This document shows, one piece after another, positions 24,277 to 63,915 of a stretch of DNA of 64,000 nucleotides. The notes beneath the pieces are model-generated. The model was not told the origin of the DNA, did not search any database, and saw only the letters and a program-made list of their open reading frames with translations. The DNA is from a virus. Location of the stretch: positions 110,314 through 174,313 of the IMG/VR virus record IMGVR_UViG_3300045988_181536, one strand, 5' to 3'. The translations under genes were made by a program, and so were the position numbers. Position 1 is the first letter of the stretch; every line of letters begins with the position of its first letter.

Positions 24277-25056
24277 ATGATTCCTGATGAGGACAAATAT
24301 ACGTTAAATAAAGAGACATACGCTGTTGATGATAGTGATTATGTAAGATCATCTTTGGAAAATAAGGTTCAGGCTGCTTTAAAGGAAAGTTTTCCATTGG
24401 AATACGGTGGTGTACGTTTAGAAGTAAAGAATATAAATATTCCAAAGCTTAAGAGATACACCTTAGGCGAACAGAAAAAGGCTTTACTGCAAAATAAATA
24501 TTTAGCCAATAGTGTTAGAGGAGATTTGTATCTTTATGATGCAAAAACTGGTGAACTCTTAGATGTAGCTCCAGAAAGAACTTTAATGAGAGTTCCGTAT
24601 TATACTGAACGTGGCACATTTATTCATAATGGTAACGAGTACAACACTTTAAGACAAATGAGGCTGCGTCCTGGAGTGTATTCTCGGAGAAAATCAAATG
24701 GCGAATTAGAATCACAGTTTAATGTGGAGAGAGGTACAGGCAACGGATTCAGGGTATCTTTAGACCCGTCATCTGGTATTTATAAATTAAATGTAGGGCA
24801 ATCTAGCTCAAATCTTTACTCAATACTACATGACCTTGGTATACCTGATGAAGAACTAGAATCAGCCTGGGGGCCGGATATTTTAGCACGTAATAAACGT
24901 AGATATGACCCAAGAGCTTTATCCAAAGTTCACAGTAAATTGGTACCGAAGCGCATTTCAAAAGCGACAAACAGGGATGAAATGATTGCTGAATTAAAAG
25001 AGGCATTTGATAATCAGCAAATTGATGAAGAAATTAAATTAAGAAATTTAGGATAA
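24277..25056 (+). CDS. RNA polymerase beta subunit N-terminal fragment
   Basis: TERGTFIHNGNEYNTLRQMRLRPGVYSRR aligns to bacterial beta [28 protein letters not shown] (beta lobe 1). Confidence 0.55.
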   Translation: MIPDEDKYTLNKETYAVDDSDYVRSSLENKVQAALKESFPLEYGGVRLEVKNINIPKLKRYTLGEQKKALLQNKYLANSVRGDLYLYDAKTGELLDVAPERTLMRVPYYTERGTFIHNGNEYNTLRQMRLRPGVYSRRKSNGELESQFNVERGTGNGFRVSLDPSSGIYKLNVGQSSSNLYSILHDLGIPDEELESAWGPDILARNKRRYDPRALSKVHSKLVPKRISKATNRDEMIAELKEAFDNQQIDEEIKLRNLG

Positions 25057-25063
25057 TTTATAC

Positions 25064-26206
25064 ATGTCGTTTAACATTAGTAATTTTAAAAAATTTGCGG
25101 ATTACGCTCCAATCTACATTCCAAAGAACACCGTCACCAAAGATGAAGCAAATGTTTGGGCTCAAGATCCAAATAATGCTAAAATTGTACGAGAATTTCA
25201 GCAAAACGTAGATAATTTGGCAAAAGAAAATTACCTTTCAAATGCTGTCAAAGATAATGAGCTTTTAAAAGTTAATAAAAAGGATAATGGCCTGGTGCGA
25301 ATGGGGAAAAATGTTATTAATTCCTCTGCAAATTTTGCTACAGACTTGTATTATAATGCTCCTAAAGCTTTGAAATATGTGTCTCCAATTGGCGCTATTA
25401 CCTCTAAAGTTATGCAATGGAATAAACCTGATTCGCATGCAAAAGTGCAGCAAATGATGAAGGAACATCCGGAGTTGCGTTATTTTTCATCAGGTCTTAA
25501 TGCCTATAAAGGTTATTACGATCCCAATACTATGGCTCGCAATGCAGCGCAAGATGCAAATAACCTTAAAAATGAAATTGATAACAACGCTCTTAGCGCA
25601 GGACTTACTGCTGCAGCAACTGCAGCTACCTTACCTGTAGGTGGCGCGGGCGGTTTAGTTGCACGAGGTGGTAGTTTAGCCGCTTCCAGAATTGCCGCTC
25701 GAACAGGAAGTAAGGGCTTAGGGAAAACTGTAGATTGGGTTTCTAGAAATCTTTTAGAACCTGGCATTCAATATTCAGTTAACCCTATGGCGGCTGTGGG
25801 AGGTGTGGCTAAATCATTAGTCCCAGGAGGCGCACGTTCTTTATCAAGTCGAGCAGTAGAGGGTGCTTTAGGGGCTTCCATATTGCCATGGGGAAATAAT
25901 TCTGTAGATAATGCGTATAAGACGGATTTTAATTTTAAAACTTTCTTAAAAAATAATCCTGAATTTGCGAATTTATCTGATGATGATCAGGGGCGATTAT
26001 ATCAATATTTGCAAGACTTTGGATTTGAAAACTATATACGCAATAATCCAGAATTGTTAAAACGTATTGAAAATACTCCTGAACAGGATCGAGCGAAGCT
26101 ACTTAACGAGTTACGTGCAAATTATAAAGGAGGGATTCCAAATATAAAGGAGCATGCTGCAGAATATAATGAGTTGCGTAATGCTCTTTTAAATGCCAAT
26201 AGGTAG
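25064..26206 (+). CDS. hypothetical protein with a Gly/Ala-rich low-complexity core
   Basis: 380-aa ORF lying between two beta fragments. The central Ala/Gly-rich stretch is GC-rich at the DNA level (about 25.55-25.86 kb). Confidence 0.35.
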   Translation: MSFNISNFKKFADYAPIYIPKNTVTKDEANVWAQDPNNAKIVREFQQNVDNLAKENYLSNAVKDNELLKVNKKDNGLVRMGKNVINSSANFATDLYYNAPKALKYVSPIGAITSKVMQWNKPDSHAKVQQMMKEHPELRYFSSGLNAYKGYYDPNTMARNAAQDANNLKNEIDNNALSAGLTAAATAATLPVGGAGGLVARGGSLAASRIAARTGSKGLGKTVDWVSRNLLEPGIQYSVNPMAAVGGVAKSLVPGGARSLSSRAVEGALGASILPWGNNSVDNAYKTDFNFKTFLKNNPEFANLSDDDQGRLYQYLQDFGFENYIRNNPELLKRIENTPEQDRAKLLNELRANYKGGIPNIKEHAAEYNELRNALLNANR

Positions 26207-26226
26207 TAAGCAGATTGGTTAATATT

Positions 26227-27372
26227 ATGTTTAAGTTTAACACCCATAAAAAAGCATCTACTTCACCATTTCCGAAAATTCAAGTGGCGGAAATGGACAA
26301 AAATACCCCAAGAGCTTCAGTAGGATTGGATTCGGTTATCAAAGCTACAAAAAAACTTTTAGCGATAAATCGCGGAGATACGGATTCTGACGAAAGAGAT
26401 TCTTTAAGATTTAAAAAGATTTTAGGGCCTGATGATTTAATTGCTGAACGGGTCAGATTGGATGCTGGAAAATTGCGCAATGCTTTAATGTTTAAGCTAA
26501 GCAAGAATCGCAGTTTAAAATTCTTCCCGTCCGGAGCTTTTGATTCTTATGCCACTGGACATATTATAGGTAATCCTTTGTCTTTGCCATCAGAAGAAAT
26601 TAATCCGGTTTATAATCTTGATCAACAATCACGAGTGACGGTTTTTGGCCCCGGTGGAGTTTCATCAGCTGATTTAGTATCTGAAGAGGCGCAAAATGTG
26701 CACCCAAGTCAGTTTGGAGTGATTGATGCCGTGGTGGGCCCTGAATGTTTGGTGTTTAATCCGAGATATGAGATTTTAACTGAGACTGGATTTAAATCTA
26801 TAAAGGATATAACTTTAAAAGATAAAATTGGTTATTGGAAGCGTGACGATAGAATCATAGGTTTTACAGAACCGGATAAGATCATATTGCAAGAATACGA
26901 AGGGAATATTGTTGGCATTGACAATGGAGTAATTTTTCAGGAAACAACACCTGATCACCGTGTTTTAATAACGAATCCGGATTTGGCAAAGGATTTGCAA
27001 TATGAGATTGTTGAAGCAAAAGATCTCATAGAAAATCCTTTAAAAGATATTTATTTATTTTCTGTACAGCAGGATTTATGTAAACAATCTTTAAAAATTG
27101 TGCCTGACAATTGTTATGTAAAACATTTTCATGGTCAAATTTGGTGCTTGAAAATTTCCGGTGGTATGTTTGTTATACGTTATGGTTCAGAAGGAATACC
27201 TTATTGGACTGGTAACTCAGAGAAAATAGGAGTTGACGTTAGGCTAGCTTCTATGACAAGAATTGGTAAAAACGGAAAATTATATACTTTATTAAGGGAT
27301 CGAAAAACCGGTAAAAAGGTTTGGATGACACCTGATGAAATAGAGGACAACATTGTAAGTTTTCCGGTTTAA
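26227..27372 (+). CDS. RNA polymerase beta subunit middle fragment containing a mini-intein
   Basis: VFGPGGVSSADLVSEEAQNVHPSQFGVIDAVVGPE aligns to beta [35 protein letters not shown]. Intein blocks A (CLVFNPRYEILTETG) and B (TPDHRVLIT) follow. After the intein, SEKIGVDVRLAS..RDRKTGKKVWMTPDE aligns to beta NIGLINSLS..YRKVTDGVVTDE. The first ATG is taken at 26227. Confidence 0.65.
   Translation: MFKFNTHKKASTSPFPKIQVAEMDKNTPRASVGLDSVIKATKKLLAINRGDTDSDERDSLRFKKILGPDDLIAERVRLDAGKLRNALMFKLSKNRSLKFFPSGAFDSYATGHIIGNPLSLPSEEINPVYNLDQQSRVTVFGPGGVSSADLVSEEAQNVHPSQFGVIDAVVGPECLVFNPRYEILTETGFKSIKDITLKDKIGYWKRDDRIIGFTEPDKIILQEYEGNIVGIDNGVIFQETTPDHRVLITNPDLAKDLQYEIVEAKDLIENPLKDIYLFSVQQDLCKQSLKIVPDNCYVKHFHGQIWCLKISGGMFVIRYGSEGIPYWTGNSEKIGVDVRLASMTRIGKNGKLYTLLRDRKTGKKVWMTPDEIEDNIVSFPV
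26746..27216 (+). other. mini-intein (157 aa) in the RNAP beta fragment
   Basis: Starts with Cys where the Gly of the conserved TPEG would be. Ends ..IPYWTGN followed by Ser. The terminal pair is Gly-Asn, not the usual His-Asn. Confidence 0.55.
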
Positions 27373-27397
27373 TTAAAGAATAATATTAAAATAAAAA

Positions 27398-29008: not shown

Positions 29009-29043
29009 GAAATAATTTTGCTTAATTATTCTATAATAATTCT

Positions 29044-29259
29044 ATGGATAAGAAATTTCAAAAGATGCAGCAACAAATAAAGCAAGCTTATGTGCTTGGA
29101 TTTAAAAATCAGTGCAAGATTCTCGGCGCTTCAAAAGAACAAGTGCCTGAGTTAACAAAAATTGCATCGGCACATTTTGACAAGGTTGGCAATCGTTATA
29201 CTCAAAAGGTTGCCAGCTGCAAGGATGCTATTAGAGAAGCTCTAGCTTCTTTAAAGTAG
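29044..29259 (+). CDS. hypothetical small protein
   Basis: 71-aa ORF. Confidence 0.3.
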   Translation: MDKKFQKMQQQIKQAYVLGFKNQCKILGASKEQVPELTKIASAHFDKVGNRYTQKVASCKDAIREALASLK

Positions 29260-29291
29260 TTTTTGCTTTTGTTGCATAGGTTCCTTTTTAA

Positions 29292-29332
29292 GCACACACT
29301 GCTTGAAATGTCTTGCAGTGTGTGCATTTTTG
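29292..29332 (+). terminator. rho-independent terminator
   Basis: Stem gcacacactgc/gcagtgtgtgc, then atttttgtgtt. Confidence 0.55.
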
Positions 29333-29348
29333 TGTTCCTATCTTGGAC

Positions 29349-29972: not shown

Positions 29973-29976
29973 AATC

Positions 29977-30618: not shown

Positions 30619-30810
30619 CTGTGGTTATACTTTTGAGCAAAATTGTACTTAATATGATAAAAAAAGGCGTAGTAGTCAAAGATGAATCTTCTCAGCAAGA
30701 GGTATCAGAAGAAGAACTTTTAAAAGACAAGAAAGAGAATATTTCTGATAATTGTCCAGATTTTGCGAGTATTATAGCTGAATTGCCTCTTTCCAAGCCT
30801 GAAAATCAAG

Positions 30811-34769: not shown

Positions 34770-34771
34770 AC

Positions 34772-42794: not shown

Positions 42795-44095
42795 ATATTC
42801 TATTTAGTCAACTACTAATCATACAAGCTGATTAGCTTGTAACTAGGTATTACTACCCGCTACAATAGGCTTGTTGACGGAAGCCCGAAAGTTATTTGCT
42901 ATATTGATAGCTGCATTTAAATCTGCATTGCATTCAAATCCACATTTCTTACACTTGAAATGGGATTGTGTAGTTCGATTGCCTTTAACGGTATACCCAC
43001 ATCTACTGCATTTTTGCGATGTATAACGAGCATCAACGTGTTGAACACTACAGCCCTTAGCTAATGCTTTGTATGTTAGGAATTGCTCTAGCTGGAAGAA
43101 ACTCCACGAATTTACTTTAGCCCTTTCGGACTTTCGCAATTTGCTACTACGATCTCTAATACCATCTAGTTTTTCAAGAACTATAGTAGTACCGGGAACG
43201 CACATAGAAACAATATTCTTACTAATACAATGATTCATATCCGTAACGAAACGGTTCTCCTTCATACTTAATGTACGGAGGTGTCTTTTAGCGGATTTAG
43301 AACCCTTGGATTGTAGTTTGGATCTTAAAATAGCATAGCGTTTCTTTACTTGTAGAACATGTTCTCCAGAGAAGATAGTACCATCAGATAGTGTAGCTAT
43401 ATTGACTATGCCTCGATCTATACCGAGTACATTATCATTGGAACATTGCACATCCTCAACCTCCTTCTCAAATATGATGTGTAGGAATAATTTGCCTTTC
43501 TTTAATGAGAGTGTAGCACCTTTCCTACGCCACGAGAAGTATTGTTTAAAGTGGTCTGTTAGATTTACTTTAAATCGTAATCTACCATTCAATGTTAGGA
43601 TAGAAACCTCGAAACGATCGAACCATATATTAAAGGAGTTCTTAGTTAATCTTAAAGCCATTTGTTTGGATTTAGGACATTTGAATTTCTTATGTTTCTT
43701 TCGTTCTAGTTTCGTAGTGGCTTTGATGGCTTCCGCTGCCTGATCCCGAACTTGTGTAGCGAGATCAGCTGGTAGTGAGAATTGTGTTCTACAATAATCA
43801 TAGGTTTGATCGTGAAGCTTTCGTTTATCAAAATTACGATCCTTGAAACCTATTTCACAAATATAGTTATACGCCTCAGTATAGGCTCGAAATGTAGGAA
43901 GTAAATCGGTAGGATTTACGTTCTCTAGCTTAAGCTTTACTGTGCGGAGTAATTTCATTTAATAGTTAATATATTCATATATTAATATAATAATGTCAAC
44001 AACAAATACTTCAAAACACTAAACAATAGAAAGGAGACTTCCGAAATTCCTTGCAATAGACAATCTATTGCGTATCCTTTCGGGACTAACAATGA
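42795..44095 (-). mobile_element. IS200/IS605-family TnpB-only (IS1341-like) element
   Basis: A tnpB ORF is flanked by subterminal hairpins: caagct-gatt-agcttg at about 42808-42833 on the tnpB 3' side and the nested ccgaaa..gcaataga-caa-tctattgc..tttcgg at about 44041-44087 on the 5' side. No terminal inverted repeats, as expected for this family. Ends are approximate. Confidence 0.55.
42843..43958 (-). CDS. tnpB: TnpB (RuvC-like RNA-guided nuclease of the IS605 family)
   Basis: 371 aa. C-terminal zinc finger within the RuvC-III region: CSRCGYTVKGNRTTQSHFKCKKCGFECNADLNAAINIA. Confidence 0.8.
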   Translation of the reverse strand: MKLLRTVKLKLENVNPTDLLPTFRAYTEAYNYICEIGFKDRNFDKRKLHDQTYDYCRTQFSLPADLATQVRDQAAEAIKATTKLERKKHKKFKCPKSKQMALRLTKNSFNIWFDRFEVSILTLNGRLRFKVNLTDHFKQYFSWRRKGATLSLKKGKLFLHIIFEKEVEDVQCSNDNVLGIDRGIVNIATLSDGTIFSGEHVLQVKKRYAILRSKLQSKGSKSAKRHLRTLSMKENRFVTDMNHCISKNIVSMCVPGTTIVLEKLDGIRDRSSKLRKSERAKVNSWSFFQLEQFLTYKALAKGCSVQHVDARYTSQKCSRCGYTVKGNRTTQSHFKCKKCGFECNADLNAAINIANNFRASVNKPIVAGSNT

Positions 44096-47947: not shown

Positions 47948-49081
47948 ATGGAACAAAAATACTATAAAATTTTAACTTCAAAAAATACCTCGTTTGAAAG
48001 AGGGTTTGATTACACCCCCTATCTCCCAGAGAATGGAAAGCCAGGAAAGGAAACACCATTTATTATGAACCCGATTCCCTGTAGTAGAGGGTATCATGTT
48101 ACGCCTAATTGGTTAAAGTATTCAAGAGTACGAGATCTAGATAATATAAAAATATATGAGGTTGAGACTATCGGCGAGTCATTTGATTTGCCATTTAATT
48201 TTGGAAAAGAACCTGCTTTTATAATTTCATGTAGTTCAATTCGTTTTTTGAAAGATGTCACGTCTGAATGTAAAACCTTATTGAAACAATTCAAGGAAAA
48301 GAACCAAGGTTCATTTAACCTAGGCGAGAATAACACAGGAGACGCAAACGAAGGAGATTATAATACAGGATCCGCAAATACGGGTAACCATAACACTGGA
48401 AATTTTAACTCAGGTTCATACAATTCTGGGTGTCATAATACGGGAAATAATAATACGGGAACTGCAAATCTTGGGAATTACAATGCAGGCACTGGCAATA
48501 TAGGTGATAAAAATTGCGGAAGTTTTAATGTTGGTTCTTTTAATGTTGGGGACTTTAATATAGGAAATCGTCATGTTGGATATTTTAATATAGGTGTCTC
48601 TAATATTAAAATGTTTAATAAAGAAATAGATATTCTTCCAGAAGACATACAGTTTCCGCGTTGGATAACTGTAGATGATCCGTTTTCATTTATGTTTAGT
48701 AAGAGGGAATTAAGATCGCGATTTGAAAACGCAGATAGTGACGACATCTACCGTACAATTAATCTTCCTAACTTTAACTACGCTATCTTTGAGAAAATAA
48801 CTGGTATCTCAAAGGAAGATATTGATAAGAAATTAAGTTGGGTTACTCTTAAGGAAAGTGCATTAAGTGAACATAAAAAAATTAAGGTAAATCTTAATGA
48901 AGACTTTACAGAGCTAAAGCCTTGTCCATTTTGTGGTAGCAAGAATATAGAATTAAGTGCTGAAGAATATTATGATAAAGACGTATTTTACATTGTTTCT
49001 TGTAATAACTGTGGGGCTAAGATCGAAGGCTCCGGCAGAAATAAAGAAGCTGCAGAAGCTTGGAATACAAGGTGTGAATAA
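47948..49081 (+). CDS. protein with NTG pentapeptide-like repeats and a C-terminal Lar-like zinc ribbon
   Basis: About 20 tandem 5-residue repeats (NTGDA NEGDY NTGSA NTGNH NTGNF NSGSY ...). C-terminus LKPCPFCGS..VSCNNCGAKIEG..EAAEAWNTR resembles Lar restriction-alleviation proteins (CPFCG...C..C......AWN.R). Confidence 0.5.
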   Translation: MEQKYYKILTSKNTSFERGFDYTPYLPENGKPGKETPFIMNPIPCSRGYHVTPNWLKYSRVRDLDNIKIYEVETIGESFDLPFNFGKEPAFIISCSSIRFLKDVTSECKTLLKQFKEKNQGSFNLGENNTGDANEGDYNTGSANTGNHNTGNFNSGSYNSGCHNTGNNNTGTANLGNYNAGTGNIGDKNCGSFNVGSFNVGDFNIGNRHVGYFNIGVSNIKMFNKEIDILPEDIQFPRWITVDDPFSFMFSKRELRSRFENADSDDIYRTINLPNFNYAIFEKITGISKEDIDKKLSWVTLKESALSEHKKIKVNLNEDFTELKPCPFCGSKNIELSAEEYYDKDVFYIVSCNNCGAKIEGSGRNKEAAEAWNTRCE

Positions 49082-54076: not shown

Positions 54077-54090
54077 AATAGCCCCACAAT

Positions 54091-54130
54091 ACACAACCGG
54101 TGGAAATCCACCGGTTGTGTATTTTTTTTT
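54091..54130 (+). terminator. rho-independent terminator
   Basis: Perfect 13-bp stem acacaaccggtgg/ccaccggttgtgt, loop aaat, then a run of 9 T. Confidence 0.7.
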
Positions 54131-54201
54131 AGCTATAACACCTTGCTCACCTAAAAAATAAATCCTTGAATTTAACTCTTAAATAAGCGAATATACAATA
54201 C

Positions 54202-57200
54202 ATGTCATCTTCGAATATAAACGACTTAAGCGCATCAAATAATCCTAAAGAAATTATGGCTAAAAAAAATAAGCTTATTCCGGTATTAAAACGCGGAGTA
54301 ATAACAGAAGAACCGGATGATATTGAAAAGGTTAGATATGAGTTCGTGTCTCCAAATCAATTCTTTGGCAATACATTAAATTTATTACCAATGCAAAATT
54401 CCGTTACTGCTGCAAGGGCGTTTTATGAGCATAAGTTTATTACTCAAGCCTTGCCTATTAAAGACGGCGAATCCCCTAATGTGCAATCTTTAAAAAATGC
54501 GGATAATAACGAGTCATATGAGGATTATTTAGGCAAAAAAACCGGTGTTATTTCATTGGATGACGACGATAATTCTGCTGATATTTTGGAAGTGACGCCG
54601 GATTATATTAAATATAAAAACGATAAAGGCGAAACTAAGACTAAGAATTTATATAACAATTTTGCCTTTAATCGTAAAACCATGCTTACTAATTATCCTT
54701 TGGTAAAAGCGGGTGACAAAATAAGCAGGGATAAATCCAAAAATCCGCCTATTTTGGCTAAAACCAACTTTACTGATAATAACGGCACTTTAAATATGGG
54801 CCTAAATGCCAGAGTGGGATTTGTGCCGTATAAGGGATGGTCCATGGATGATGCCGTGGTGATATCGGAAGATTTTGCTAAAAAGATGACTTCGCAACAT
54901 ATGTATCAATATAGCGAAGCTAATGACAGCAAGGATATAAAAACAGGCAAAGACCATTTTAAAGCTTTTTATCCGGATAAGTTTAACAAGGAACAGATGG
55001 ATAAAATAGACGATAATGGCGTTATTAAAGCAGGCACTGTGGTGAATCCCGGTGATCCATTAATCGTATCCACACGTTCCAGGGTTGTGTCCTCTAATGA
55101 TGCTAATTTAGGTAGATTATCCAAGTATTTAAAAACAACGCGATTGGACTCATCCCAAGTATGGGATCATAATACTCCGGGTGTCGTAACTGATGTTGTC
55201 AAAACAAATGACGGATATAAGGTTAACGTTGAGACTTTTGCGCCTATGCAAGAGGGGGATAAGATGTGCTATCACCCCGATACTGAAGTATTCACGGAAG
55301 ACGGATGGAAGAATATAACTGAGGTTAAATTGGGCGACAAAGTTGTTGCTTTAACCACAGATTTATCAGGAAAACCGAGCGGATATAAGCTTTCAGATGT
55401 AATAGAAATACATAAATATAAATTAAATAATGATACTTTATATGGTTATGAAGATGAGCATGTTGCTCAGTTAGTTACTGGAAATCATAATTGCGCTATT
55501 AATTGTTTAGACAAGTTGACCTATGAAACTGCAAATCTTTTATCTTATTCCTCAAAAGATGAACAGTTTATTTCTGTAAGTCCTGATTTTGATTTAAATA
55601 ATGGGAATGATTTAAAGTATACGTTTATAAATAAAAACAATGTATATAAAGCATATGATTATTCCGGAGAGGTAATAGGCATAGGAGTTAACGCTTTTTC
55701 GCATATTATTTTAACGAGATATCATAATAAACCTATATTCTCGGGCAACTCAAGTCGCTCCGGTAATAAGTTAACTGTATCCCATATTTTACCGCAAAAT
55801 GAAATGCCGAGAACAAAAGACGGCAAACCGTTAGATGTATTATTTAATCAGTTGGGTTTGGTGTCTCGAGTTAATGCCAATATGATGTATGAAGCTATGC
55901 TTGGGAAGGTTGCCGAGAAAACGGGTAAAAAATATAAATTGCCGACCTTTAATAAAAATAGCGAAAAATGGTATGATTTTGTCGAAAACGAATTAAAGAA
56001 AAATAACTTGTCTGATGTCGAACCCGTTTATGATCCAGTAATTGATAGAGACTTAGACCAACCTATTGCTGTAGGCAATGCTTATTTTCTTAAACTGCAT
56101 CATACGTCTGACTCCAAACTTTCCTCAAGGGGTCAGGGCATTTATGACCAAAATGAAATGCCTGTAAAGGGCGGGGAAGAAGGCATGAAAAGTAAAAGAC
56201 ACAGCAACTTGGAGAGTAATGCGATTTTATCTTCCGGTGCATATAACGTAATTAAAGACGCAATACATTTAAGGGGACAACGCAATGATGATTATTGGCG
56301 TAAGGTTCGTATGGGGCAGACGCCATCATTAGCCAAAAAATCGCCTTTTATCTGGGATAAGTATATTGCTTTAATGCAAGGCGCAGGAATAAATGCAAAA
56401 CGCGCTGATAATGGCGATTCGATTCAAGCCACACCTTTTACAGATAAGGACTTTGCATTATTTAACCCTGTTGAAATAAAAAATGACGGCATTATAGACT
56501 TTAAAAATATGAAACCTATTTCCGGCGGATTATTTGATCCTGCTTTAACTGTCGGCAACAGATGGGGAAAAATTACATTAGATAGGCCTTATCCTAATCC
56601 TGCATTTGAAGATACGATAATATCTTTATTAGGACTTAAAAGGTCTACGTTTAATGATATATTAGCCGGAAAAGAATCATTGCTTAAATACGGCACCGGA
56701 ACCAAGGCTATATATAATGCATTGTCGGATATAGACATAGACAAAGATTTAGAACAGGCAAAACAAGATTTTAAATATGGACCAAAATCTAAAAAGCAAC
56801 AGGCACTAAATCGTATAATGGCTTTAGACGGATTAAAAAATAACCGTATGAAGCCTGAAGAATTTATGATTACGAAGGTGCCTGTTATACCACCTAAATT
56901 CAGGCCTTATTCTGTTATGGGTAAAGATACTTTCTTGCCTGGGGATGCAAACGAGCTATATCAAGATGTAATTAACATGGCGCATACCCAGGGCGAGATA
57001 TTGCAAGAATTAGGCCCCGATGAAGCAGATAAAAATGTGCCTAATGTTTATAAATCTTTAAAAGCTTTGTATGGTTACGGAGAGCCTGCAAGTCGCAAAT
57101 TAAAGCAAAGAGGAGTATCAGGATTTTTACAAAAACTTATCGGGGGAACTTCTAAGTTTTCGCAATGGAATAGGAATATCATAAGCAAGCCCGTGGATTT

Positions 57201-57582
57201 TTCTGCGAGAGGCGTAATCGATGCAAATCCCGAGATTTCTATGGATGAGCTTGGTATTCCTTATGAAATGGGTTTTGAGATTTATTCGCCATATATTCAG
57301 CGAGAGCTTGTAAAAAGAGGCCTTTCACCAAAAGATGCGTTACAGAATATTAAAGACCAGACAAAAATGGCAAAAGATGCGTTGCAGACTGTGGTGGATG
57401 GAGGCAGATGGATTACTGCAAGTAGGGCACCGGCGTGGCATAAGTTCAATGTACTTGGCTTTAAACCTGTGTTTCATGAGGGCAAGAATATATTGCTTCC
57501 GCCTGTGGTGAGCTCTGGATTAGGGGCTGATTTTGACGGCGACTGCCAATGGGGGCACGTGTTCCTGTTAACTAAGTCTTGA
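54202..57582 (+). CDS. RNA polymerase beta C-terminal portion fused to beta' N-terminal portion (through the DFDGD active site), containing a mini-intein
   Basis: LNARVGFVPYKGWSMDDAVVISEDF aligns to beta [25 protein letters not shown]. GDKM | intein | SSRSGNKLTVSHILP..DVLFNQLGLVSR aligns to beta GDKMAGRHGNKGVISKINP..DIVLNPLGVPSR. Beta' motifs follow: PPKFRP, DFSARG, RAPAWHKF, and the catalytic GADFDGD 13 residues before the stop. Confidence 0.8.
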   Translation: MSSSNINDLSASNNPKEIMAKKNKLIPVLKRGVITEEPDDIEKVRYEFVSPNQFFGNTLNLLPMQNSVTAARAFYEHKFITQALPIKDGESPNVQSLKNADNNESYEDYLGKKTGVISLDDDDNSADILEVTPDYIKYKNDKGETKTKNLYNNFAFNRKTMLTNYPLVKAGDKISRDKSKNPPILAKTNFTDNNGTLNMGLNARVGFVPYKGWSMDDAVVISEDFAKKMTSQHMYQYSEANDSKDIKTGKDHFKAFYPDKFNKEQMDKIDDNGVIKAGTVVNPGDPLIVSTRSRVVSSNDANLGRLSKYLKTTRLDSSQVWDHNTPGVVTDVVKTNDGYKVNVETFAPMQEGDKMCYHPDTEVFTEDGWKNITEVKLGDKVVALTTDLSGKPSGYKLSDVIEIHKYKLNNDTLYGYEDEHVAQLVTGNHNCAINCLDKLTYETANLLSYSSKDEQFISVSPDFDLNNGNDLKYTFINKNNVYKAYDYSGEVIGIGVNAFSHIILTRYHNKPIFSGNSSRSGNKLTVSHILPQNEMPRTKDGKPLDVLFNQLGLVSRVNANMMYEAMLGKVAEKTGKKYKLPTFNKNSEKWYDFVENELKKNNLSDVEPVYDPVIDRDLDQPIAVGNAYFLKLHHTSDSKLSSRGQGIYDQNEMPVKGGEEGMKSKRHSNLESNAILSSGAYNVIKDAIHLRGQRNDDYWRKVRMGQTPSLAKKSPFIWDKYIALMQGAGINAKRADNGDSIQATPFTDKDFALFNPVEIKNDGIIDFKNMKPISGGLFDPALTVGNRWGKITLDRPYPNPAFEDTIISLLGLKRSTFNDILAGKESLLKYGTGTKAIYNALSDIDIDKDLEQAKQDFKYGPKSKKQQALNRIMALDGLKNNRMKPEEFMITKVPVIPPKFRPYSVMGKDTFLPGDANELYQDVINMAHTQGEILQELGPDEADKNVPNVYKSLKALYGYGEPASRKLKQRGVSGFLQKLIGGTSKFSQWNRNIISKPVDFSARGVIDANPEISMDELGIPYEMGFEIYSPYIQRELVKRGLSPKDALQNIKDQTKMAKDALQTVVDGGRWITASRAPAWHKFNVLGFKPVFHEGKNILLPPVVSSGLGADFDGDCQWGHVFLLTKS
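55267..55749 (+). other. mini-intein (161 aa) in the conserved beta GDKxxxRHGNKG motif
   Basis: Starts CYHPDTEV after GDKM. Block B is LVTGNHNCAI. Ends ..KPIFSGN followed by SSRSGNK. The terminal pair is Gly-Asn. Confidence 0.6.
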
Positions 57583-57613
57583 CAAAGTTTTCCATATTCT
57601 AATGATGTAGGGT

Positions 57614-59050
57614 ATGGAAAATAAATTATCAGACTTAATTTCTTTAAAACACAGCAAAGAATTTAATAACAAGAAACAAAAGTTTATAGATTTCTTAAAT
57701 ACCAATCTGGAAGTTCTACAGTTAAGAGAAAAATATAACTTAACTGTAGAAGATTTAAATTGGCATCTTACGAGAAAATTAGATTTCTATAAACACGAGT
57801 GTCCTGTATGTGGAAAACCTGTGCATGCTAACAAATGGGGTTGTTGGGATTTTCCCACCTATTGCTCAGTTAAGTGTAGAATGTCTGATCCGAAATATTG
57901 GGATAAAATTAAAGAAAGTAACGTAAAAAAATATGGTACGCCTTATTCGTTTCAGTCTGAAATAATTAAGTCGAAAATTAAACAGACGAATCTTCAACGT
58001 TATGGCGTAGAAAATCCAGCTATACTTGATTCTATTAAAGAAAAAGCTAAGGCTACTTGTCTGGATAAGTACGGAGTAGTTTCTACAGCGTTAGTGCCTG
58101 AAATTAGAGAGCTACAGAAAAAATCCCTAATACAGAATTATGTTTTAAATTGTAATATAACTAATGATGTTTTAAATTTAAAAAAAGAAATCTTAAGTTT
58201 TGTTAAAACAATATATTCTGGAGAAATATGTTTTGAAGATAAATCTATTGTTATAGATTCTTTGAATAAAAGAAAAAATCTTGAATTAGACATTTATTTG
58301 CCAGAAAGAAAACTGGCTTTTGAAATTAATGGTTCTTATCAATGTAGTTTGATGGATAAAAAACCAAGTTATAATACATATAAAACTAAGTTGTGTGAGG
58401 AAAAGGGTATACATTTAGTGCATATTATGGAATATACATGGGTTAATAATCCTGAAGGAGTGAAATCCAGAATTAAAGACTTATTGGGTATTTATGATCA
58501 AACAATATACGCCAGAAAATGTGAGGTTAGAAAAATAGAGTATAACAAAGCAAAAGAATTTTTAATTATGAATCATTTGCAAGGAGAAGTAGTTTCTTCG
58601 CGTAACTATGGTCTATTTTATAATGATGACATTGTAGGTGTAATGACTTTTGGTTCTCCAAGGTTTAATAAGAAATATTCTTGGGAATTACTAAGATTTT
58701 GTGTTAAACAAGGTCTGCATATTCCTGGAGCAGCATCAAAATTATTGTCATTTTTTGTAAAAGAAGTTAAACCTGATAACTTAATAAGTTATGCAGATAG
58801 GACTTGGAGTAATGGTAAGCTATATAGAGCATTAGGATTTAAATTAGAAGGTGAAACTAAACCAGGATATGTTTATGTAAAAAATAACAATCAAGAAGTT
58901 TTATGTTGGTATAAAAGTCAAAAACACAATCTAAAGAATTTATTGGGAGACCAATTTGATTCAACATTATCTGCATCAAAAAATATGATTAAGGCACACT
59001 ATTGGAAAGTTTATGACTGCGGAAATTTAATTTTTTCTAAAACATTTTAA
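57614..59050 (+). CDS. Zn-finger / KYG-repeat protein with a C-terminal GNAT-like domain (possible homing-endonuclease-associated protein)
   Basis: N-terminal CPVCGKPVH..CSVKCR. Three tandem repeats of about 35 aa (KKYGTPYSFQSEIIKSKIKQT / QRYGVENPAILDSIKEKAKAT / DKYGVVSTALVPEIRELQKKS). The C-terminal Q-G-x-x-x-G-A-A segment resembles GNAT motif A. It sits exactly where the beta' gene is interrupted. Confidence 0.3.
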   Translation: MENKLSDLISLKHSKEFNNKKQKFIDFLNTNLEVLQLREKYNLTVEDLNWHLTRKLDFYKHECPVCGKPVHANKWGCWDFPTYCSVKCRMSDPKYWDKIKESNVKKYGTPYSFQSEIIKSKIKQTNLQRYGVENPAILDSIKEKAKATCLDKYGVVSTALVPEIRELQKKSLIQNYVLNCNITNDVLNLKKEILSFVKTIYSGEICFEDKSIVIDSLNKRKNLELDIYLPERKLAFEINGSYQCSLMDKKPSYNTYKTKLCEEKGIHLVHIMEYTWVNNPEGVKSRIKDLLGIYDQTIYARKCEVRKIEYNKAKEFLIMNHLQGEVVSSRNYGLFYNDDIVGVMTFGSPRFNKKYSWELLRFCVKQGLHIPGAASKLLSFFVKEVKPDNLISYADRTWSNGKLYRALGFKLEGETKPGYVYVKNNNQEVLCWYKSQKHNLKNLLGDQFDSTLSASKNMIKAHYWKVYDCGNLIFSKTF

Positions 59051-59081
59051 TCTTAACTTATAACTTTATTTTTAAATATTT

Positions 59082-59690
59082 ATGGAAACATCACAAATTA
59101 AATGGGGATTTCTTCGAGAAACTGAAGCTAAAGCAAAACAACTGGGATTGGATGCCGATACAGGTCTACATAGAACAGGCTTAGATACCTATCTATCAGC
59201 AATCTATCCTGAAGTTACTGATTGGATTCACGATAAATGTGTAAAAGGACTTTTAGTTGATGGAAAGCAAAGTCTTTTTCGTCCTGATTATAGAAGTGAA
59301 ACCTTAAAAATGATTGTTGAATTTGACGGTATACAGCATTATCAAAATCCCGAAAAGATTTTAGCGGACAAATTTAAAACAGATCTTTTTACGAAAGCCG
59401 GTTATAAGGTAATTAGAATACCATATTTTATACAGTTAACCAATAAGGTCATTAAAACATTATTTAATGTGGAAATAGAAACACCTATGTTTGATGAGTC
59501 TATTCCTTCAATAGGTGTTAAAGGCAAATGCACTCCTGCATTTTTGTGCCCGACAGGTGTAATAAGGATGGCAAAAGAGTTTCATAATATATCTCCGGAA
59601 CAATATATTATAAACGTTAATGCTGTCAGATCTTATCCAGACGAGCTTACAGGACTAAGTTTACTTGAAGCTTACTATAAAAGTTTATAA
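59082..59690 (+). CDS. DUF559 / Vsr-like PD-(D/E)xK family endonuclease
   Basis: RPDYRSE..IVEFDGIQHY....D..K..LFTKAGYKVIRIPY matches the DUF559 pattern (RPDF...IE.DG..H......D..R...L...G..V.R). Confidence 0.5.
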   Translation: METSQIKWGFLRETEAKAKQLGLDADTGLHRTGLDTYLSAIYPEVTDWIHDKCVKGLLVDGKQSLFRPDYRSETLKMIVEFDGIQHYQNPEKILADKFKTDLFTKAGYKVIRIPYFIQLTNKVIKTLFNVEIETPMFDESIPSIGVKGKCTPAFLCPTGVIRMAKEFHNISPEQYIINVNAVRSYPDELTGLSLLEAYYKSL

Positions 59691-59694
59691 TTAA

Positions 59695-60306
59695 ATGGAA
59701 ACTCTAACCAAACAAAACATGACAATAAAAGAAAAACTGGATTTATTAATCAAAGCCAACACAGCCTATAGAATAGGCAATCCTATTATCACAGACCAAG
59801 AATATGATTTAATCATCAGCGAAATAAAAGATACAAAAGAGTATAATGAAATAAAGTACTTCCTCAATGAAGGCGCAGACGGATCGGATTTTAAACATTC
59901 CTACGTGATAGGATCATTGGAAAAGCTTAAAAATGGTGAAGATGATACAATAAAGTCTTTTGATAAAAATAACTTAACAAAAAATTGGATAATTACACCC
60001 AAACTTGATGGGGCATCTTTGACGTTGTATTACATAAACGGTCAGTTGGCAGATATTGCTACGCGAGGGGATGGTTATAAGGGTAAATCGCAATTTAAAC
60101 GCTTGTTTGATTTAAATATTCCCAAGACTTTAAAATTTGCAAAAGGTACAGTTGTTATAAGAGGAGAAATACTTTTAACTCATCAGGCATTTGATAGACT
60201 TAATGCCGATACTAATGGCAAATATAAAAAGCATCCGAGAAATGCTGTCGTAGGACTTTTGGGAGATAAAAATGACACTTCTGACATTCTCCAAGCACTA
60301 AAGTAG
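59695..60306 (+). pseudogene. truncated NAD-dependent DNA ligase (LigA) fragment; first about 200 aa of the adenylation domain only
   Basis: TPKLDGASLTLYYINGQLADIATRGDGYKGK carries the LigA KxDG adenylation lysine and the TRGDG motif. HPRNAVVGLLGDKND aligns to LigA NPRNAAAGSLRQLDP. The ORF then stops 9 nt inside the convergent tnpB. No continuation is found within the window. Confidence 0.6.
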
Positions 60307-60341
60307 TTGGGTTCTCCTAACCTCGCGGTTTAGGTTTTCTG
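60281..60341. repeat. left arm of a perfect 61-bp inverted repeat
   Basis: ctgacattctccaagcactaaagtagttgggttctcctaacctcgcggtttaggttttctg. Its exact reverse complement occurs at 63940-64000. It spans the ligA stop and the last 14 codons of tnpB. Confidence 0.95.
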
Positions 60342-61497
60342 TTTCATCGGCGACTGCATTGGATGCTTCTGCATCTTTTAGTCTTACACCGCCTCCGCAG
60401 ACAAACACGACTTGCCCAGCCGCTAAAATATTTTTAGCTGCGTTTATATCTCTATCTAATACACTTCCACAGACTTGACATGTCCAAGACCTTTCGGAAA
60501 GCTTTAAGTCTTGTTTGATATAACCGCAGTGATTACAAGTTTTAGAGGAAGGAAAAAATCGATCAATGATTTTTAGATCTCTTCCATACCACTTGCATTT
60601 GTATTCCAACATATTGCGCAGCATACTCCAAGAAGAATTGGAGATAGCGTGTGCTAAATTATGATTTTTAAGCATATTTTTTACTGCAAGATCTTCCATA
60701 ACTATCGTTTGGTTTTCACGAATTAGTTTGGTTGTAATCTTATGCAAGGTATCTATACGCTTATTCGAAATTGTTTGATAGCATTTGGCCACCTTGACGT
60801 TTGCTTTGGTCCTATTCTTAGAACCTAACTTTTTGCAAGAAGCCTTACGTTGCAATCTTCGTAATTTATTAAAATCTTTTTTAGTATCCGGATTTTTGAA
60901 TACTTCCGCATTTGAAGTTGTTATTAAATTGTGCAACCCCAAATCCAGACCTACGGATTTATTTGAAACGGGAAGTTTGCAATCTTCATTACTATCTACA
61001 GTAATTGAAAAATACCATTCTTGAGAAGGGGTTAATCTAATCGTTAAGGATATTAATTTATCTGTAGACTTAATCCTCCAATTATCCTTAGATAATTTTA
61101 AAGGTTGCTTGGATTTAGCAATATAAACTTGGTTATTTTTGATTCTAAATCCTGAAGTAGTAAATCTTGCTGAACTTCCTGAAGATTTCTTTTTAAACTT
61201 AGGGTATTTGGCACGTTTGGCAAAAAAGTTATCAAACGCTGCGCCTAAATTTTTTATAGATTGTTGTAAACAAACATTAGATACTTCATTTAACCATGAG
61301 TATTCAGGCTGACGTTTCCATTTTGTCAGCTCTTTCATTAAATCAAAAGAGCTTAATGATTTGCCTGTTTGCGTAAATGTCGAAGACTTAAGATCAAGAC
61401 TTTTATTATAGATAAACCTAACGCATCCCAAGGTTCTACGTAGAAGAATCTCTTGGTCTTTCGTAGGATAAAATCTATGCTTTATAGTCTTTATCAT
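60298..61497 (-). CDS. tnpB: TnpB (RuvC-like RNA-guided nuclease)
   Basis: 399 aa. C-terminal CNHCGYIKQDLKLSERSWTCQVCGSVLDRDINAAKNILAAG zinc finger. Its sequence differs from the 42843..43958 TnpB. Confidence 0.8.
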   Translation of the reverse strand: MIKTIKHRFYPTKDQEILLRRTLGCVRFIYNKSLDLKSSTFTQTGKSLSSFDLMKELTKWKRQPEYSWLNEVSNVCLQQSIKNLGAAFDNFFAKRAKYPKFKKKSSGSSARFTTSGFRIKNNQVYIAKSKQPLKLSKDNWRIKSTDKLISLTIRLTPSQEWYFSITVDSNEDCKLPVSNKSVGLDLGLHNLITTSNAEVFKNPDTKKDFNKLRRLQRKASCKKLGSKNRTKANVKVAKCYQTISNKRIDTLHKITTKLIRENQTIVMEDLAVKNMLKNHNLAHAISNSSWSMLRNMLEYKCKWYGRDLKIIDRFFPSSKTCNHCGYIKQDLKLSERSWTCQVCGSVLDRDINAAKNILAAGQVVFVCGGGVRLKDAEASNAVADETENLNREVRRTQLL

Positions 61498-61685
61498 TTT
61501 TAATTGAACTTATTTAACTAAATAGATTCAGATAATGCAAGAAAAATTGTATGGTGCGCGTTAAAAAAGCTTGATAAATTAAAAATTTTATTGGATATTA
61601 TATCCAACATACCCGCCAGGCCTCTTAACAATGCCCAAATGTGGAGGGTTTAAATGAAGCCAATGGACTGGGGAATCTCGGTCGG

Positions 61686-61730
61686 TGAAAGATCTCGGAG
61701 TATTTCGGGGTCTTTCATTTTTTTTTTTTT
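61686..61730 (+). terminator. rho-independent terminator on the + strand within the IS 5'-side non-coding region
   Basis: Stem gaaagatctcgg..ggggtctttc, then a run of 13 T. No + strand ORF lies upstream, which suggests a small RNA ending here. Confidence 0.5.
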
Positions 61731-62050
61731 ACATATTTTTTATTTGTATTGACTAAAAGCTTAAGATGCTAAACACTTAATTATTATGTCACATTCTGTA
61801 GTTTTAGACCGCATTAAAGATTCCCCAGCTGTAAAATGGTTGGACAGTGCGGCAAATAATGCAGTTAAATGGCCTGGTTATGGTTTGGGGTTTTAAATAA
61901 GATATTTAATATTGAGGCACCCAAGCATAAGGATAAACATTTTAAGGATTTCATGGATAAAGTTAATCAATATTTTGATGGGAAGTCTAAAATACCTGTG
62001 AGAGTTTCCAAAAATGATTTTGTAACTACTAACTTAGCATAGGAGAAAAT

Positions 62051-62458
62051 ATGACAACAAATACTTATGGTAAAATAATAAAACAAGCCGGACTTGGCAG
62101 GGCTCTGTCATGGCTTGTTTCCAAAGGCATAAATAAGGTTATCAAATCTAAACCGATTGCAAACCGGATGGATAAAGACTGGAATGCTTATGTAAAACAT
62201 AGGGAAAAACTTGAAAATAGATTTCCTAAAGAAACCATTAGGAATGCTGATGGTTCTACTACTACGAGATTGACTCCTGAGGGTGAAAAAGCTTTTAAGA
62301 GAGAATATTTTAATGAAACTATGAAGAGAGATGGTAAAAATGTGCTTGATTTAACTCCTGAACTCACAAAAGCTAGGCTAACAAAATCTATAGACTTTAA
62401 GGATCCTGTTGCAACCACTGAGTTAGTCAGATATATAAGGCAATTAAGAAACCTATAG
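62051..62458 (+). CDS. hypothetical basic protein
   Basis: 135-aa ORF with an RBS aggag 8 nt upstream. Confidence 0.3.
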   Translation: MTTNTYGKIIKQAGLGRALSWLVSKGINKVIKSKPIANRMDKDWNAYVKHREKLENRFPKETIRNADGSTTTRLTPEGEKAFKREYFNETMKRDGKNVLDLTPELTKARLTKSIDFKDPVATTELVRYIRQLRNL

Positions 62459-62565
62459 TACCCGACAATAGGAAAATAATTGATTTTGATGCTGGATATA
62501 AAAATATATTGAAATAATTAAACTAATTATTTGTGAAATAACAGTTAAGAGAACTGTGGAACGAA

Positions 62566-62853
62566 ATGGATCCTGGATTAAAGCTGGGATTATTAGTTTC
62601 CCTACCTGCTACAGCTTTTGATGCTATGTTCACAACTCCGAGGGTTAACATAGTTGATAGAGCAATACGAAATGCTTTAATTGGAGGCACCGTGGGCTAC
62701 GGGGCTAGTAAATTAAAAAGTTATTTGGATAAAAAGCATTTAGCTAAGGAAGTAGAGAAAACTTACGGGGATAATATTATAGGAACCGGAGTAAAATCCA
62801 TTGTTAATAAAATGTATGACAATGGCATGAAATCTAAATTTCGATGGGAATAA
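62566..62853 (+). CDS. hypothetical protein
   Basis: 95-aa ORF. Confidence 0.3.
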   Translation: MDPGLKLGLLVSLPATAFDAMFTTPRVNIVDRAIRNALIGGTVGYGASKLKSYLDKKHLAKEVEKTYGDNIIGTGVKSIVNKMYDNGMKSKFRWE

Positions 62854-62871
62854 ATTTATTCACTTAAGTTT

Positions 62872-62910
62872 AAAACCAAGGAATCATTAGATCCTTGGTT
62901 TTATTTTTGA
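62872..62910 (+). terminator. rho-independent terminator
   Basis: Stem aaaaccaagga/tccttggtttt, then atttttg. Confidence 0.5.
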
Positions 62911-62946
62911 CATATGATTTTGTTTTTGCATTATTAAAACCTAATA

Positions 62947-63915
62947 ATGCAACCAATTAAAAATCCAGAGCTTTTAAATTTACCAGATATTCCGGAGGGT
63001 TATTCAGTATTTTTGGCCGATTTGTCTGAAATACCTCATGGTAAATTGACCAATGTAAATCCGGAGGGTAAAAACGGTCCTATTTATTTTTATGATACAC
63101 AGGATTTAAAAACATTGGCTTTTAATGAAGATAAAGGATGTTGGGACTGGGCTGATGTAAGTTGTTTTTCAATACATCCAAAACGACGATTAGTTATTGT
63201 TACATTATCTAACGGTTTGCAGATTTTTACGGACGATGACCCAAGGGCAATTTACGGATTAAATAAAAATACCGGAAAATACGAAAGACATACACCCGAA
63301 GAAGCTAAAGAATTGAATATAAATATTCCCGTATGTTCAGTGCTTGCAGAACATAAATATAGCAAAGATGAATTTATATTTCCTTTATTTTTTGATGATT
63401 TTAATGAAATAAGGGATGTGCAAAAGGAATTTTATCGAGTAGGAATTATCACATTAGTTTCTTATGATAAAGAACTAAAACAATTTGTTTTAGAAACTGA
63501 CGATAACTATGATTTTGCTGAATGGATTAATAAACCAGGTTTAGAGTTTGCGACTATTGACTTAATTGAAGATACGGGAGTTTATCTGGACGGTTATGAC
63601 CTTACAGTTCCGGGGTATGAAACCTTTATTAATTATAGTGGCGTTGTACTTTCGAATACGATGAATGTGCATGTGCCTGCGCTTCCTGAAGCTCAAGCTG
63701 AAATAAAAGAAAAGTTGCTGCCGTCAAAACAGATTTTTTCTCCCAGGGATTATAGGGTCGTAAATAAGCTAAAGCAGGATTATATCTTAGGTCCCAATTC
63801 TCAGATTACGGCGCCTGCAGAAAATAAATGGATATTAAATAGCGCCAAGGAATTAATGGAAGGATTAAATTCCGGCAAAATTAAATTGTCGGATGAGGTA
63901 GTGATACTACCTTAA
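62947..63915 (+). CDS. RNA polymerase beta' fragment (region just after the active site) with a novel N-terminal extension of about 220 aa and a degenerate DFDGD motif
   Basis: LIEDTGVYL..YSGVVLSNTMNVHVPALPEAQAEIKEKLLPSKQIFSPRDYRVVNKLKQDYILG..AKELMEGLNSGKIKL aligns to beta' [77 protein letters not shown]. The Asp triad is replaced by VxLxN. The ORF stops right at the inverted repeat. Confidence 0.45.
   Translation: MQPIKNPELLNLPDIPEGYSVFLADLSEIPHGKLTNVNPEGKNGPIYFYDTQDLKTLAFNEDKGCWDWADVSCFSIHPKRRLVIVTLSNGLQIFTDDDPRAIYGLNKNTGKYERHTPEEAKELNINIPVCSVLAEHKYSKDEFIFPLFFDDFNEIRDVQKEFYRVGIITLVSYDKELKQFVLETDDNYDFAEWINKPGLEFATIDLIEDTGVYLDGYDLTVPGYETFINYSGVVLSNTMNVHVPALPEAQAEIKEKLLPSKQIFSPRDYRVVNKLKQDYILGPNSQITAPAENKWILNSAKELMEGLNSGKIKLSDEVVILP

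Follow-up and report, generated by a model that had tools for sequence, protein, structure and literature searches.

A fragmented RNA polymerase gene in a phage genome, with two predicted cis-splicing mini-inteins and a putative split intein at the catalytic DFDGD loop

Multisubunit RNA polymerases (RNAPs) with catalytic subunits in unjoined, assembling pieces are known from cyanobacteria, with their gamma/beta' split, and from jumbo phages of the phiKZ/AR9 type, in which split beta and beta' subunits are well documented (PMC7598289, PMC7824862). The inteins known from RNAPs are contiguous and lie in cellular or eukaryotic-virus genes, among them the archaeal Mja rPol A' and A'' and Nph rPol A'' and the eukaryotic RPB2, RPA2 and RPC2 (PMC1635734). 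Atypically split natural inteins are encoded by two genes, a very short N-terminal intein fragment (IntN) following the N-extein and a long C-terminal fragment (IntC) preceding the C-extein; IntN has 16 residues in VidaL, 15 in PolB16 (called the shortest), 25 in AceL-TerL and 37 in GOS-TerL (PMC13014065, PMC10189870). Here we analyze positions 110,314 to 174,313 of the IMG/VR virus record IMGVR_UViG_3300045988_181536, a stretch of 64,000 nucleotides (hereafter the window) which carries a fragmented multisubunit RNAP gene. We consider it quite probable that in this phage of about 174 kb a gene for a fusion of the beta subunit with the N-terminal part of beta' (beta-beta'N) was broken into four open reading frames (ORFs) and invaded by three inteins, of which two would splice in cis and one in trans. 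The relevant features are as follows, with an arrow marking each predicted splice junction:

24277..25056, + strand: piece 1, a beta-subunit N-terminal fragment of 259 residues (BLASTP)
26215..27372, + strand: piece 2, a beta-subunit middle fragment, 385-residue precursor (BLASTP; weak Pfam Rpb2_3 match)
26746..27216, + strand: mini-intein 1 in piece 2, 157 residues, GPE↓CLVF...WTGN↓SEKIG (a gap relative to orthologues)
54202..57582, + strand: piece 3, joining the C-terminal half of beta to an N-terminal stretch of beta' and ending in IntN, 1126-residue precursor (Pfam, BLASTP)
55267..55749, + strand: mini-intein 2 in piece 3, 161 residues, GDKM↓CYHP...FSGN↓SSRSGNK (a gap relative to Arash, D69 and E. 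coli)
57544..57579, + strand: IntN, 12 residues (CQWGHVFLLTKS) right after the beta' DFDGD (E. coli D464), then a stop codon (alignment to relatives)
62947..63915, + strand: piece 4, with intein residues 1-237 and only the last 85 residues from beta'
62947..63657, + strand: IntC, 237 residues ending in ...YSGVVLSN, followed by Thr+1 (profiles, AlphaFold2 and Foldseek)
63658..63915, + strand: the C-extein of piece 4, 85 residues of beta' (TMNVHVPALPEAQ...SDEVVILP) and a stop codon, continuing the polymerase straight after DFDGD

All four ORFs, which an initial annotation of the window had assigned to RpoB and RpoC as pieces lying tens of kilobases apart, are recovered as homologues of these subunits at the same coordinates by profile searches and BLASTP, and their order is strictly colinear with gp206 of Salmonella phage Arash over a total spread of 39.6 kb. 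Piece 1 matches Arash gp206 (its residues 23-259 on 18-259 of gp206, E 9e-27), the counterpart of gp206 in Vibrio phage D69 (E 2e-31) and residues 49-156 of E. coli RpoB; as its first residue is no more than 5 positions away from where unsplit phage orthologues begin, the first 60 or so beta residues once thought to be absent are not missing at all. Piece 2 has an alternative ATG start at 26227 and retains 228 residues once its intein is removed; its residues 21-178 and 329-384 align with Arash gp206 241-419 and 413-468, and the piece also matches E. coli RpoB 423-605. Residues 43-356 and 521-1115 of piece 3 align with Arash gp206 493-794 and 798-1439, and this ORF also matches RpoB 648-1304 and RpoC 181-472 of E. 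coli. The Pfam model RNA_pol_Rpb2_6 is found in its first half (165 bits, cut-off 23.4, E 3.5e-48) and Rpb1_2 (45 bits, cut-off 25.3, E 1.8e-11) and Rpb1_1 (E 1.5e-9) in its second half, and therefore piece 3 is a true fusion of the beta C-terminus with the beta' N-terminus, as originally suggested. In piece 4 residues 219-267 match Arash gp206 1426-1468, E. coli RpoC 463-509 is also matched, and a profile of 23 homologues, in the segment adjoining its intein matches, picks out Thermus thermophilus beta' 745-829 (E 3.6e-7). The beta lysine motif GDK...GNK is present in piece 3, where it reads GDKM↓intein↓SSRSGNK, while the beta' catalytic loop is divided between GADFDGD at residues 1108-1114 of piece 3 and TMNVHVP from residue 238 of piece 4, past the intein.

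The best annotated relatives of this enzyme are those of Arash and D69, at about 30% identity (29-31%). In Arash beta and the N-terminal part of beta' form one protein of 1525 residues (gp206), with the rest of beta' (beta'C) encoded by a separate gene (gp216); the D69 equivalents (1527 and about 610 residues), annotated as hypothetical only, were identified by homology. The exteins of the window add up to 259 + (385-157) + (1126-161-12+85) = 259 + 228 + 1038 = 1525 residues, which is the length of Arash gp206, and domain order and the end point of beta'N are likewise shared; however, Arash and D69 have a single uninterrupted gene without inteins, as against four ORFs, three inteins and 39.6 kb in the window. 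A large beta-beta'N fusion of about 1525 residues with a separate beta'C protein is thus the norm of this clade, and neither the fusion nor the end point of piece 4 is peculiar to this genome. The closest kin are of the Arash/D69 type and not of the phiKZ/AR9 type. Where the phiKZ/AR9 and cyanobacterial enzymes break beta' behind the catalytic barrel, the split resembles in kind the one that ends piece 4, but those systems lack a beta-beta' fusion, are far more divergent and have two sets (virion and non-virion), whereas piece 3 is a fusion and tblastn and profile searches show only one set in the window. The view that the pieces are unusually close to bacterial sequence holds in so far as general Pfam RNAP models match strongly, but not in terms of identity to E. 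coli, which is only 23-30% and ordinary within this phage clade. The best PHROG matches of piece 3 are to families other than those annotated as RNAP, and public records label the proteins of these pieces 'hypothetical'.

The clade counts 177 or more IMG/VR loci that have a beta'C relative, along with 4019 representative proteins, and we found no description of it in the literature searched. Its members, designated below by L and P numbers, indicate the ancestral layout. Pieces 1 and 2 abut in Arash gp206 and D69 and share one reading frame in the distant relatives L017-L045, in many of which the beta'C gene lies directly 3' of the fusion gene. In the metagenomic relative L017 a single ORF of 2171 residues spans the equivalents of pieces 1, 2 and 3 and the C-extein, reads DHDGD-TVNIHVP without interruption and has the same C-terminus as piece 4. 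From these layouts a fused gene without interruptions is the ancestral form and the fragmentation is derived. The unsplit L017 protein (L017:5071-11586) further has an extra N-terminal domain of about 310 residues and an insertion of about 417 residues between the equivalents of piece 3 residues 663 and 667.

The break after DFDGD, previously read as a simple subunit split, is the junction of a split intein. Piece 3 ends in GADFDGD↓CQWGHVFLLTKS-stop, the stop falling 12 and not 13 residues past the motif, and piece 4, which had been considered polymerase throughout, reaches polymerase sequence only at LSN↓TMNVHVPALPEAQ. The TMNVHVPALPEAQ stretch directly follows DFDGD in every intein-less relative examined; these relatives read DFDGD-(T/A/Q)MN(V/L)HVP and have the same ...SDEVEI terminus, and the insertion site is empty in Arash, D69, L017 and dozens of others. 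IntC is recognized by the NCBIfam model intein_Cterm (21.6 bits, cut-off 15.6), and its family profile (23 homologues) matches the Methanocaldococcus vulcanius TFIIB mini-intein 5o9i (E 1e-7) and the DnaB and RadA inteins. An AlphaFold2 model of IntC (predicted local distance difference test score, pLDDT, 83) retrieves nothing but inteins at ranks 1-36 of a Foldseek search of the PDB (best E 2e-7), which identifies a Hint fold. The contiguous homologue P0126, whose intein has 237 residues and Cys1, aligns over the gap from piece 3 to piece 4: its first 12 intein residues fall on the 12-residue tail of piece 3, and some 14 additional linker residues are present in IntC. LAGLIDADG homing endonuclease domains are found in the large contiguous members of this family. 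The window copy has Cys1, a terminal Asn and Thr+1 (C...N↓T), residues which, judged by sequence, are compatible with the canonical splicing pathway. A start of the intein at residue 2 was considered and rejected, as the intein-less form DFDGD-(T/A/Q)-M-N means that it would leave a longer catalytic loop.

The split is widely conserved. The protein consisting of IntC and C-extein has homologues in 37 clusters at 31-97% identity (310-402 residues, on contigs of up to 197 kb), nearly all covering 92-100% of the query. An alignment of 23 members shows little or no variation in block B (T-D-x-D-P-R-A), block F (G-Y-D-L-T-V-P-G-x-E-T-F) and block G (L-S-N↓T). N-terminal pieces with tails of 12-17 residues after D(F/Y/N)DGD occur in P0054, L006, L008, P0118-P0125, P0166, P0217 and P0224. 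The spacing of the intein halves varies: the window has 5.4 kb of cargo between them, in L006 they are adjacent, 141 nt apart and without this cargo, the P0035 contig has a single DUF723 gene between them and L008 an IS200/IS605 element. The ENA contig ERZ501519 (174,201 bp) is 100% identical to the window over 9,799 nt with an identical arrangement, and the same layout recurs in SRR7989896, ERZ28628063 and several IMG/VR contigs, making at least three independent assemblies. Since relatives of as little as 31% identity retain it and no fewer than three assemblies show it independently, the split represents neither decay nor misassembly, and the pattern of sequence conservation argues that it is maintained under selection.

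Like VidaL, PolB16 OarG, AceL-TerL and GOS-TerL, the window has two genes, a very short IntN attached to the N-extein and a long IntC attached to the C-extein; as in the reported 'S1' position of atypical split inteins the break comes right after block A, the described cases also come from phage or metagenomic DNA, and the window copy has Cys1. It differs in that IntN has 12 residues as against 15-37 in the natural atypical cases, in that the host protein is RNAP beta' at its DFDGD loop as against terminase, PolB and other reported hosts, and in having a block-B Asp for His, a penultimate Ser and an IntC of 237 residues with an extra inserted subdomain. Thus the conserved predicted IntN of 12-13 residues appears to be shorter than the natural cases in the literature searched, with RNAP as an apparently new host for an atypical split.

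Further inteins at the same beta' site were observed in relatives. A second, unrelated family (DFDGN↓C(I/V)IG..K...(I/V)VYD↓T) is found in P0104, P0107, P0124, P0134, P0152, P0168, P0172, P0181, P0240 and P0252; it has Asn for the third catalytic Asp and Asp as the last intein residue, so that canonical splicing would leave DFDGN-T, and some of its members are split, with an IntN of 23-25 residues. The DFDGD site is shared, too, by a third family (S/CGRF...VQD↓T) and by a mini-intein of canonical type (P0247, S...LHN↓T).

The other two interruptions are contiguous mini-inteins. Mini-intein 1 lies in the beta motif TPE↓G, at the equivalent of E. coli beta E565↓G566; it begins with Cys1, contains TPDH as block B and ends in Asn, with Ser at +1. 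Its site is empty in L015, L016, L017-L021, Arash and D69, and in L022 a related sequence (40% over residues 8-80) is found just downstream of the aligned piece 2 N-extein. Mini-intein 2, hidden behind what the initial annotation had shown as a small gap ('..') in GDKM..SSRSGNK, lies within the lysine motif of the active site, in beta GDKM↓A (E. coli M1066↓A1067), and likewise starts with Cys1 and ends in Asn before Ser+1, its block B being TGNH. Its site is empty in Arash, D69, L017, P0119 and P0121, and in P0118 (81-93% identical in BLASTP segments) it is occupied by a version of about 361 residues with an in-frame LAGLIDADG_3 domain (36 bits, cut-off 22.5). Such patchy occupation of one and the same site is typical of mobile inteins. 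The two mini-inteins share full-length homology (E 2e-7), and since hhalign found no match between mini-intein 2 and the IntC family profile, the beta mini-inteins and the split intein belong to different intein families. Every one of the three breaks relative to orthologues translates to a Cys start and an Asn↓Ser or Asn↓Thr end. As with several of the known RNAP inteins, which also sit in conserved regions of the two largest subunits, the mini-inteins end in Gly-Asn; unlike those contiguous elements of cellular or eukaryotic-virus genes, the inteins of the window are in phage genes and one is split. In the literature searched we came across no account of contiguous or split inteins in the multisubunit RNAPs of phages, that of phage Arash included, nor of inteins at phiKZ/AR9 or cyanobacterial RNAP junctions. 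A family with the CYHPDTE[VI]FT... start of mini-intein 2 was seen at GDKM↓...↓SSRSGNK in the window and P0118, and in L008:4226-8218 and P0122 seven residues downstream, at GDKIT.L.GNK↓...↓S; from these sequences it looks like the insertion point has shifted within one beta motif.

The remaining breaks, between pieces 1 and 2 and between pieces 2 and 3, lack intein motifs and on the sequence are plain gene fissions. The latter separates its halves by 26.8 kb, and piece 3 starts at the same point in L006 and L008. The following genes lie in the former break and between the intein halves:

25064..26206, + strand: pX, an orphan ORF of 380 residues between pieces 1 and 2, not RNA polymerase (no family match)
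57614..59050, + strand: a free-standing homing-endonuclease-like gene, 478 residues (PHROG, Pfam)
59082-59690: a DUF559/Vsr-like ORF (Pfam DUF559)
59695-60306: a fragment of an NAD-ligase adenylation domain, 203 residues (Pfam DNA_ligase_aden)
60298-61497, - strand: TnpB (Pfam OrfB_IS605, Cas12f1-like_TNB and HTH_OrfB_IS605)

pX is spaced 7 and 8 nt from its neighbours, has no Pfam or PHROG match and no counterpart in Arash gp206 or D69, and its only database homologues, none of them annotated, are 83-97% identical. In L012-L014 its slot holds a variant only 34-36% identical though the flanks are 75-99% identical (in L014, 36% against 99% for piece 1), pX evolving much faster than its neighbours. 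pX and its L012-L015 counterparts have a Gly/Ala-rich centre and a common N-terminal motif, (F/Y)KKF(A/S).Y.

The homing-endonuclease-like gene begins 32 nt past the IntN stop codon and matches PHROG 3339 'homing endonuclease' (E 1e-116), PHROG 559 'HNH endonuclease' (E 7e-76) and the Pfam models DUF7487 and Mom. Dassa et al. (2009, PMC2677866) describe 'fractured genes' as split-intein gene halves flanking a free-standing homing endonuclease gene. The endonuclease gene next to IntN and the DUF723 gene between the halves in P0035 resemble that arrangement. The 5.4-kb gap of the window with its several unrelated genes, the geneless gap of L006 and the IS200/IS605 element of L008 depart from it, as does an atypical split position, other than that at which an endonuclease domain usually inserts. 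A repeat search of the 5.4-kb gap returned no element boundaries. The ligase ORF holds only the N-terminal portion of an NAD-dependent adenylation domain and may have been truncated or split by insertion of TnpB, since it overlaps the 3' end of that convergent gene. Immediately upstream of the IntC gene IS200/IS605 elements are also seen in L007 and L008, and this position appears, from these few contigs, to be a recurrent landing site. An Rfam match to the abiF RNA motif lies at 61612-61649 (+ strand, 46 bits, gathering score 37), and after it a strong terminator-like hairpin of 16 pairs and T10 at 61684-61719 (+ strand), just upstream of the start of the opposite-strand TnpB. A second TnpB (OrfB_IS605/Cas12f1-like) is encoded at 42843-43958 (- strand).

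These observations suggest how the polymerase might be put together. The IntN strand would complete IntC by docking into its unfinished Hint fold, Cys1 would carry out an N-S acyl shift and Thr+1 would then take the N-extein, after which cyclization of the terminal Asn and formation of a peptide bond would restore DFDGD-TMNVHVP, the junction peptide of the trans-spliced product being predicted as GADFDGD-TMNVHVPALPEAQAEIK. Mini-inteins 1 and 2 would splice in cis. The mature products would be three polypeptides of 259, about 228 and about 1038 residues, which would form a core enzyme with beta'C supplied from outside the window. At the two plain fissions the pieces are expected to assemble non-covalently, like the split RNAP subunits of cyanobacteria and phiKZ-like phages. 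Each of the three inteins interrupts a motif that is catalytic or contacts nucleic acid, so that no polymerase activity is expected before their excision.

Several observations weigh against this reconstruction with its predicted splicing events. Both mini-inteins end in GN, without the penultimate His; when excised they give only sub-threshold Hint or intein_Nterm matches in Pfam and NCBIfam, and single-sequence searches of the PDB with both yielded nothing significant. The split intein likewise lacks the penultimate His (reading SN) and the block-B His (reading TDDDP), the T-x-x-H of block B being replaced by an invariant T-D-x-D across its family, and a single-sequence AlphaFold2 model of fused IntN and IntC (pLDDT 33) is uninformative. 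Residue 1 is Cys only near the lineage of the window; elsewhere in the family it is mostly Q, A, D, Y, E or F (in P0119, P0122, P0125, P0138, P0166, P0217, P0224, L008:4226-8218 and others) and otherwise S, and non-nucleophiles occur there in split and in endonuclease-bearing contiguous members alike. Across these members the Asn-Thr junction and blocks B (T-D-x-D-P-R-A) and F (G-Y-D-L-T-V-P-G) are invariant and no other Cys is conserved. As residue 1 is so often not a nucleophile, canonical class-1 chemistry is not general in this family, and members without the nucleophile would either use a non-canonical route or not splice. Finally, the beta'C gene of this genome was not located: tblastn and a profile from ten beta'C proteins found no homologue in the window, in line with the initial annotation, and the identical contig has none in the 10 kb that lie downstream of piece 4; the best 80 loci in an IMG/VR scan with this profile belong to other lineages only, and beyond the four pieces no fifth ORF of the 64-kb window matches RpoB, RpoC, Arash or D69 (tblastn and phmmer). 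The beta'C gene presumably lies elsewhere in the genome of about 174 kb. Scans for sigma-70 promoters and terminators around the RNAP pieces stayed at chance level.

The departures from canonical residues lend some substance to the idea that the two intein halves are splice-dead, acting as a non-covalent docking module or cleaving only at the C-terminal side, and so holding or releasing the beta' fragments at the active site; the residue-1 nucleophile is missing in many members, and the block-B and penultimate His family-wide. We nevertheless deem this unlikely, as the window copy and the members nearest to it keep Cys1, all members examined have Asn and Thr+1 without exception, as the chemistry of the C-terminal junction predicts, and full-length members bear LAGLIDADG homing endonucleases like ordinary mobile inteins. 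Moreover, judging from RNAP structure, we know of no RNAP precedent for a domain of about 250 residues left in place after DFDGD, ahead of the strand that comes next in the catalytic barrel. A somewhat smaller chance attaches to the four ORFs being stand-alone subunits in the manner of phiKZ/AR9, assembling non-covalently, with an ordinary split point after DFDGD. The jumbo-phage precedent and the plain look of the fissions on either side of piece 2 speak for it, but piece 4 is not polymerase over residues 1-237, which make up part of an intein with a Hint fold and end in LSN↓T, the 12-residue tail of piece 3 aligns with block A of a contiguous homologue, intein-less relatives run uninterrupted through DFDGD-TMNVHVP and the nearest relatives are Arash/D69-type fusion enzymes and not phiKZ-type ones.

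The mobile elements around the break could mean that the gene was disrupted by them, or that contigs were misjoined, and that it is non-functional: the 5.4 kb between pieces 3 and 4 are full of an HNH-type endonuclease gene, the Vsr-like ORF and TnpB, and the window as a whole has at least two TnpB copies and five inteins. Such decay or artefact is very improbable given that every ORF is intact, that the layout is common to three independent assemblies and several IMG/VR contigs, that the split IntC gene retains invariant catalytic blocks down to 31% identity and that the window has no second RNAP copy. Phage genes often carry group I introns with homing endonucleases, and with an endonuclease gene following piece 3 one might instead think of joining at the RNA level through group I/II introns, trans-splicing or translational bypass. 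This we regard as barely credible, since no intron family exceeds its Rfam gathering threshold anywhere in the window, the interruptions stay in frame and encode Hint-domain sequence that begins at Cys1 and finishes at Asn↓Ser or Asn↓Thr, and the L006 spacer is only 141 nt.

Within the favoured interpretation of two cis- and one trans-splicing events, a more speculative extension, to which we give rather little credence, is that the split-intein family at DFDGD↓T may splice without a residue-1 nucleophile or a block-B His, through direct attack by Thr+1 or with help from the invariant -1 Asp of the catalytic loop. It would then constitute a new mechanistic class, the 12-residue IntN would be the shortest natural trans-splicing tag and the separately transcribed IntC gene might be a timing switch for the polymerase.

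Beyond the RNAP locus, a ribonucleotide reductase large-subunit ORF (8905-12351) of the window contains an intein of 254 residues at 9925-10686 (TNP↓CLTGDTKV...ILNNQQ↓CGEQ; Pfam Intein_splicing 41.8 bits, cut-off 35.8) whose last residue by position is apparently Gln, not Asn. A family-A DNA polymerase ORF (12405-16364), in which an N-terminal domain of the uracil-DNA glycosylase superfamily is fused to exonuclease and polymerase, has an insertion of 247 residues at 15003-15743 (KVANF↓CSGKEN...NSHN↓SIPYGAS) with Cys1 and His-Asn↓Ser ends; this insertion divides the DNA_pol_A match into two stretches and by its terminal residues is probably a fifth intein in the window. The ORF at 47948-49081 combines pentapeptide repeats with a C-terminal Lar restriction-alleviation domain, and a similar gene is found near an RNAP piece in L006. 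A single tRNA-Asn (GTT) gene lies at 1023-1094.

If our interpretation is correct, the catalytic centre of this polymerase is assembled post-translationally by three protein splicings, of which one joins in trans the products of two genes separated by 5.4 kb. A conserved natural IntN of 12-13 residues would be a candidate for peptide-based protein ligation, and, as several unrelated intein families occupy it, the DFDGD site would be useful for studying intein homing into an essential active site. The frequent lack of a residue-1 nucleophile beside an invariant Asn-Thr poses a directly testable question about the splicing mechanism of this family.

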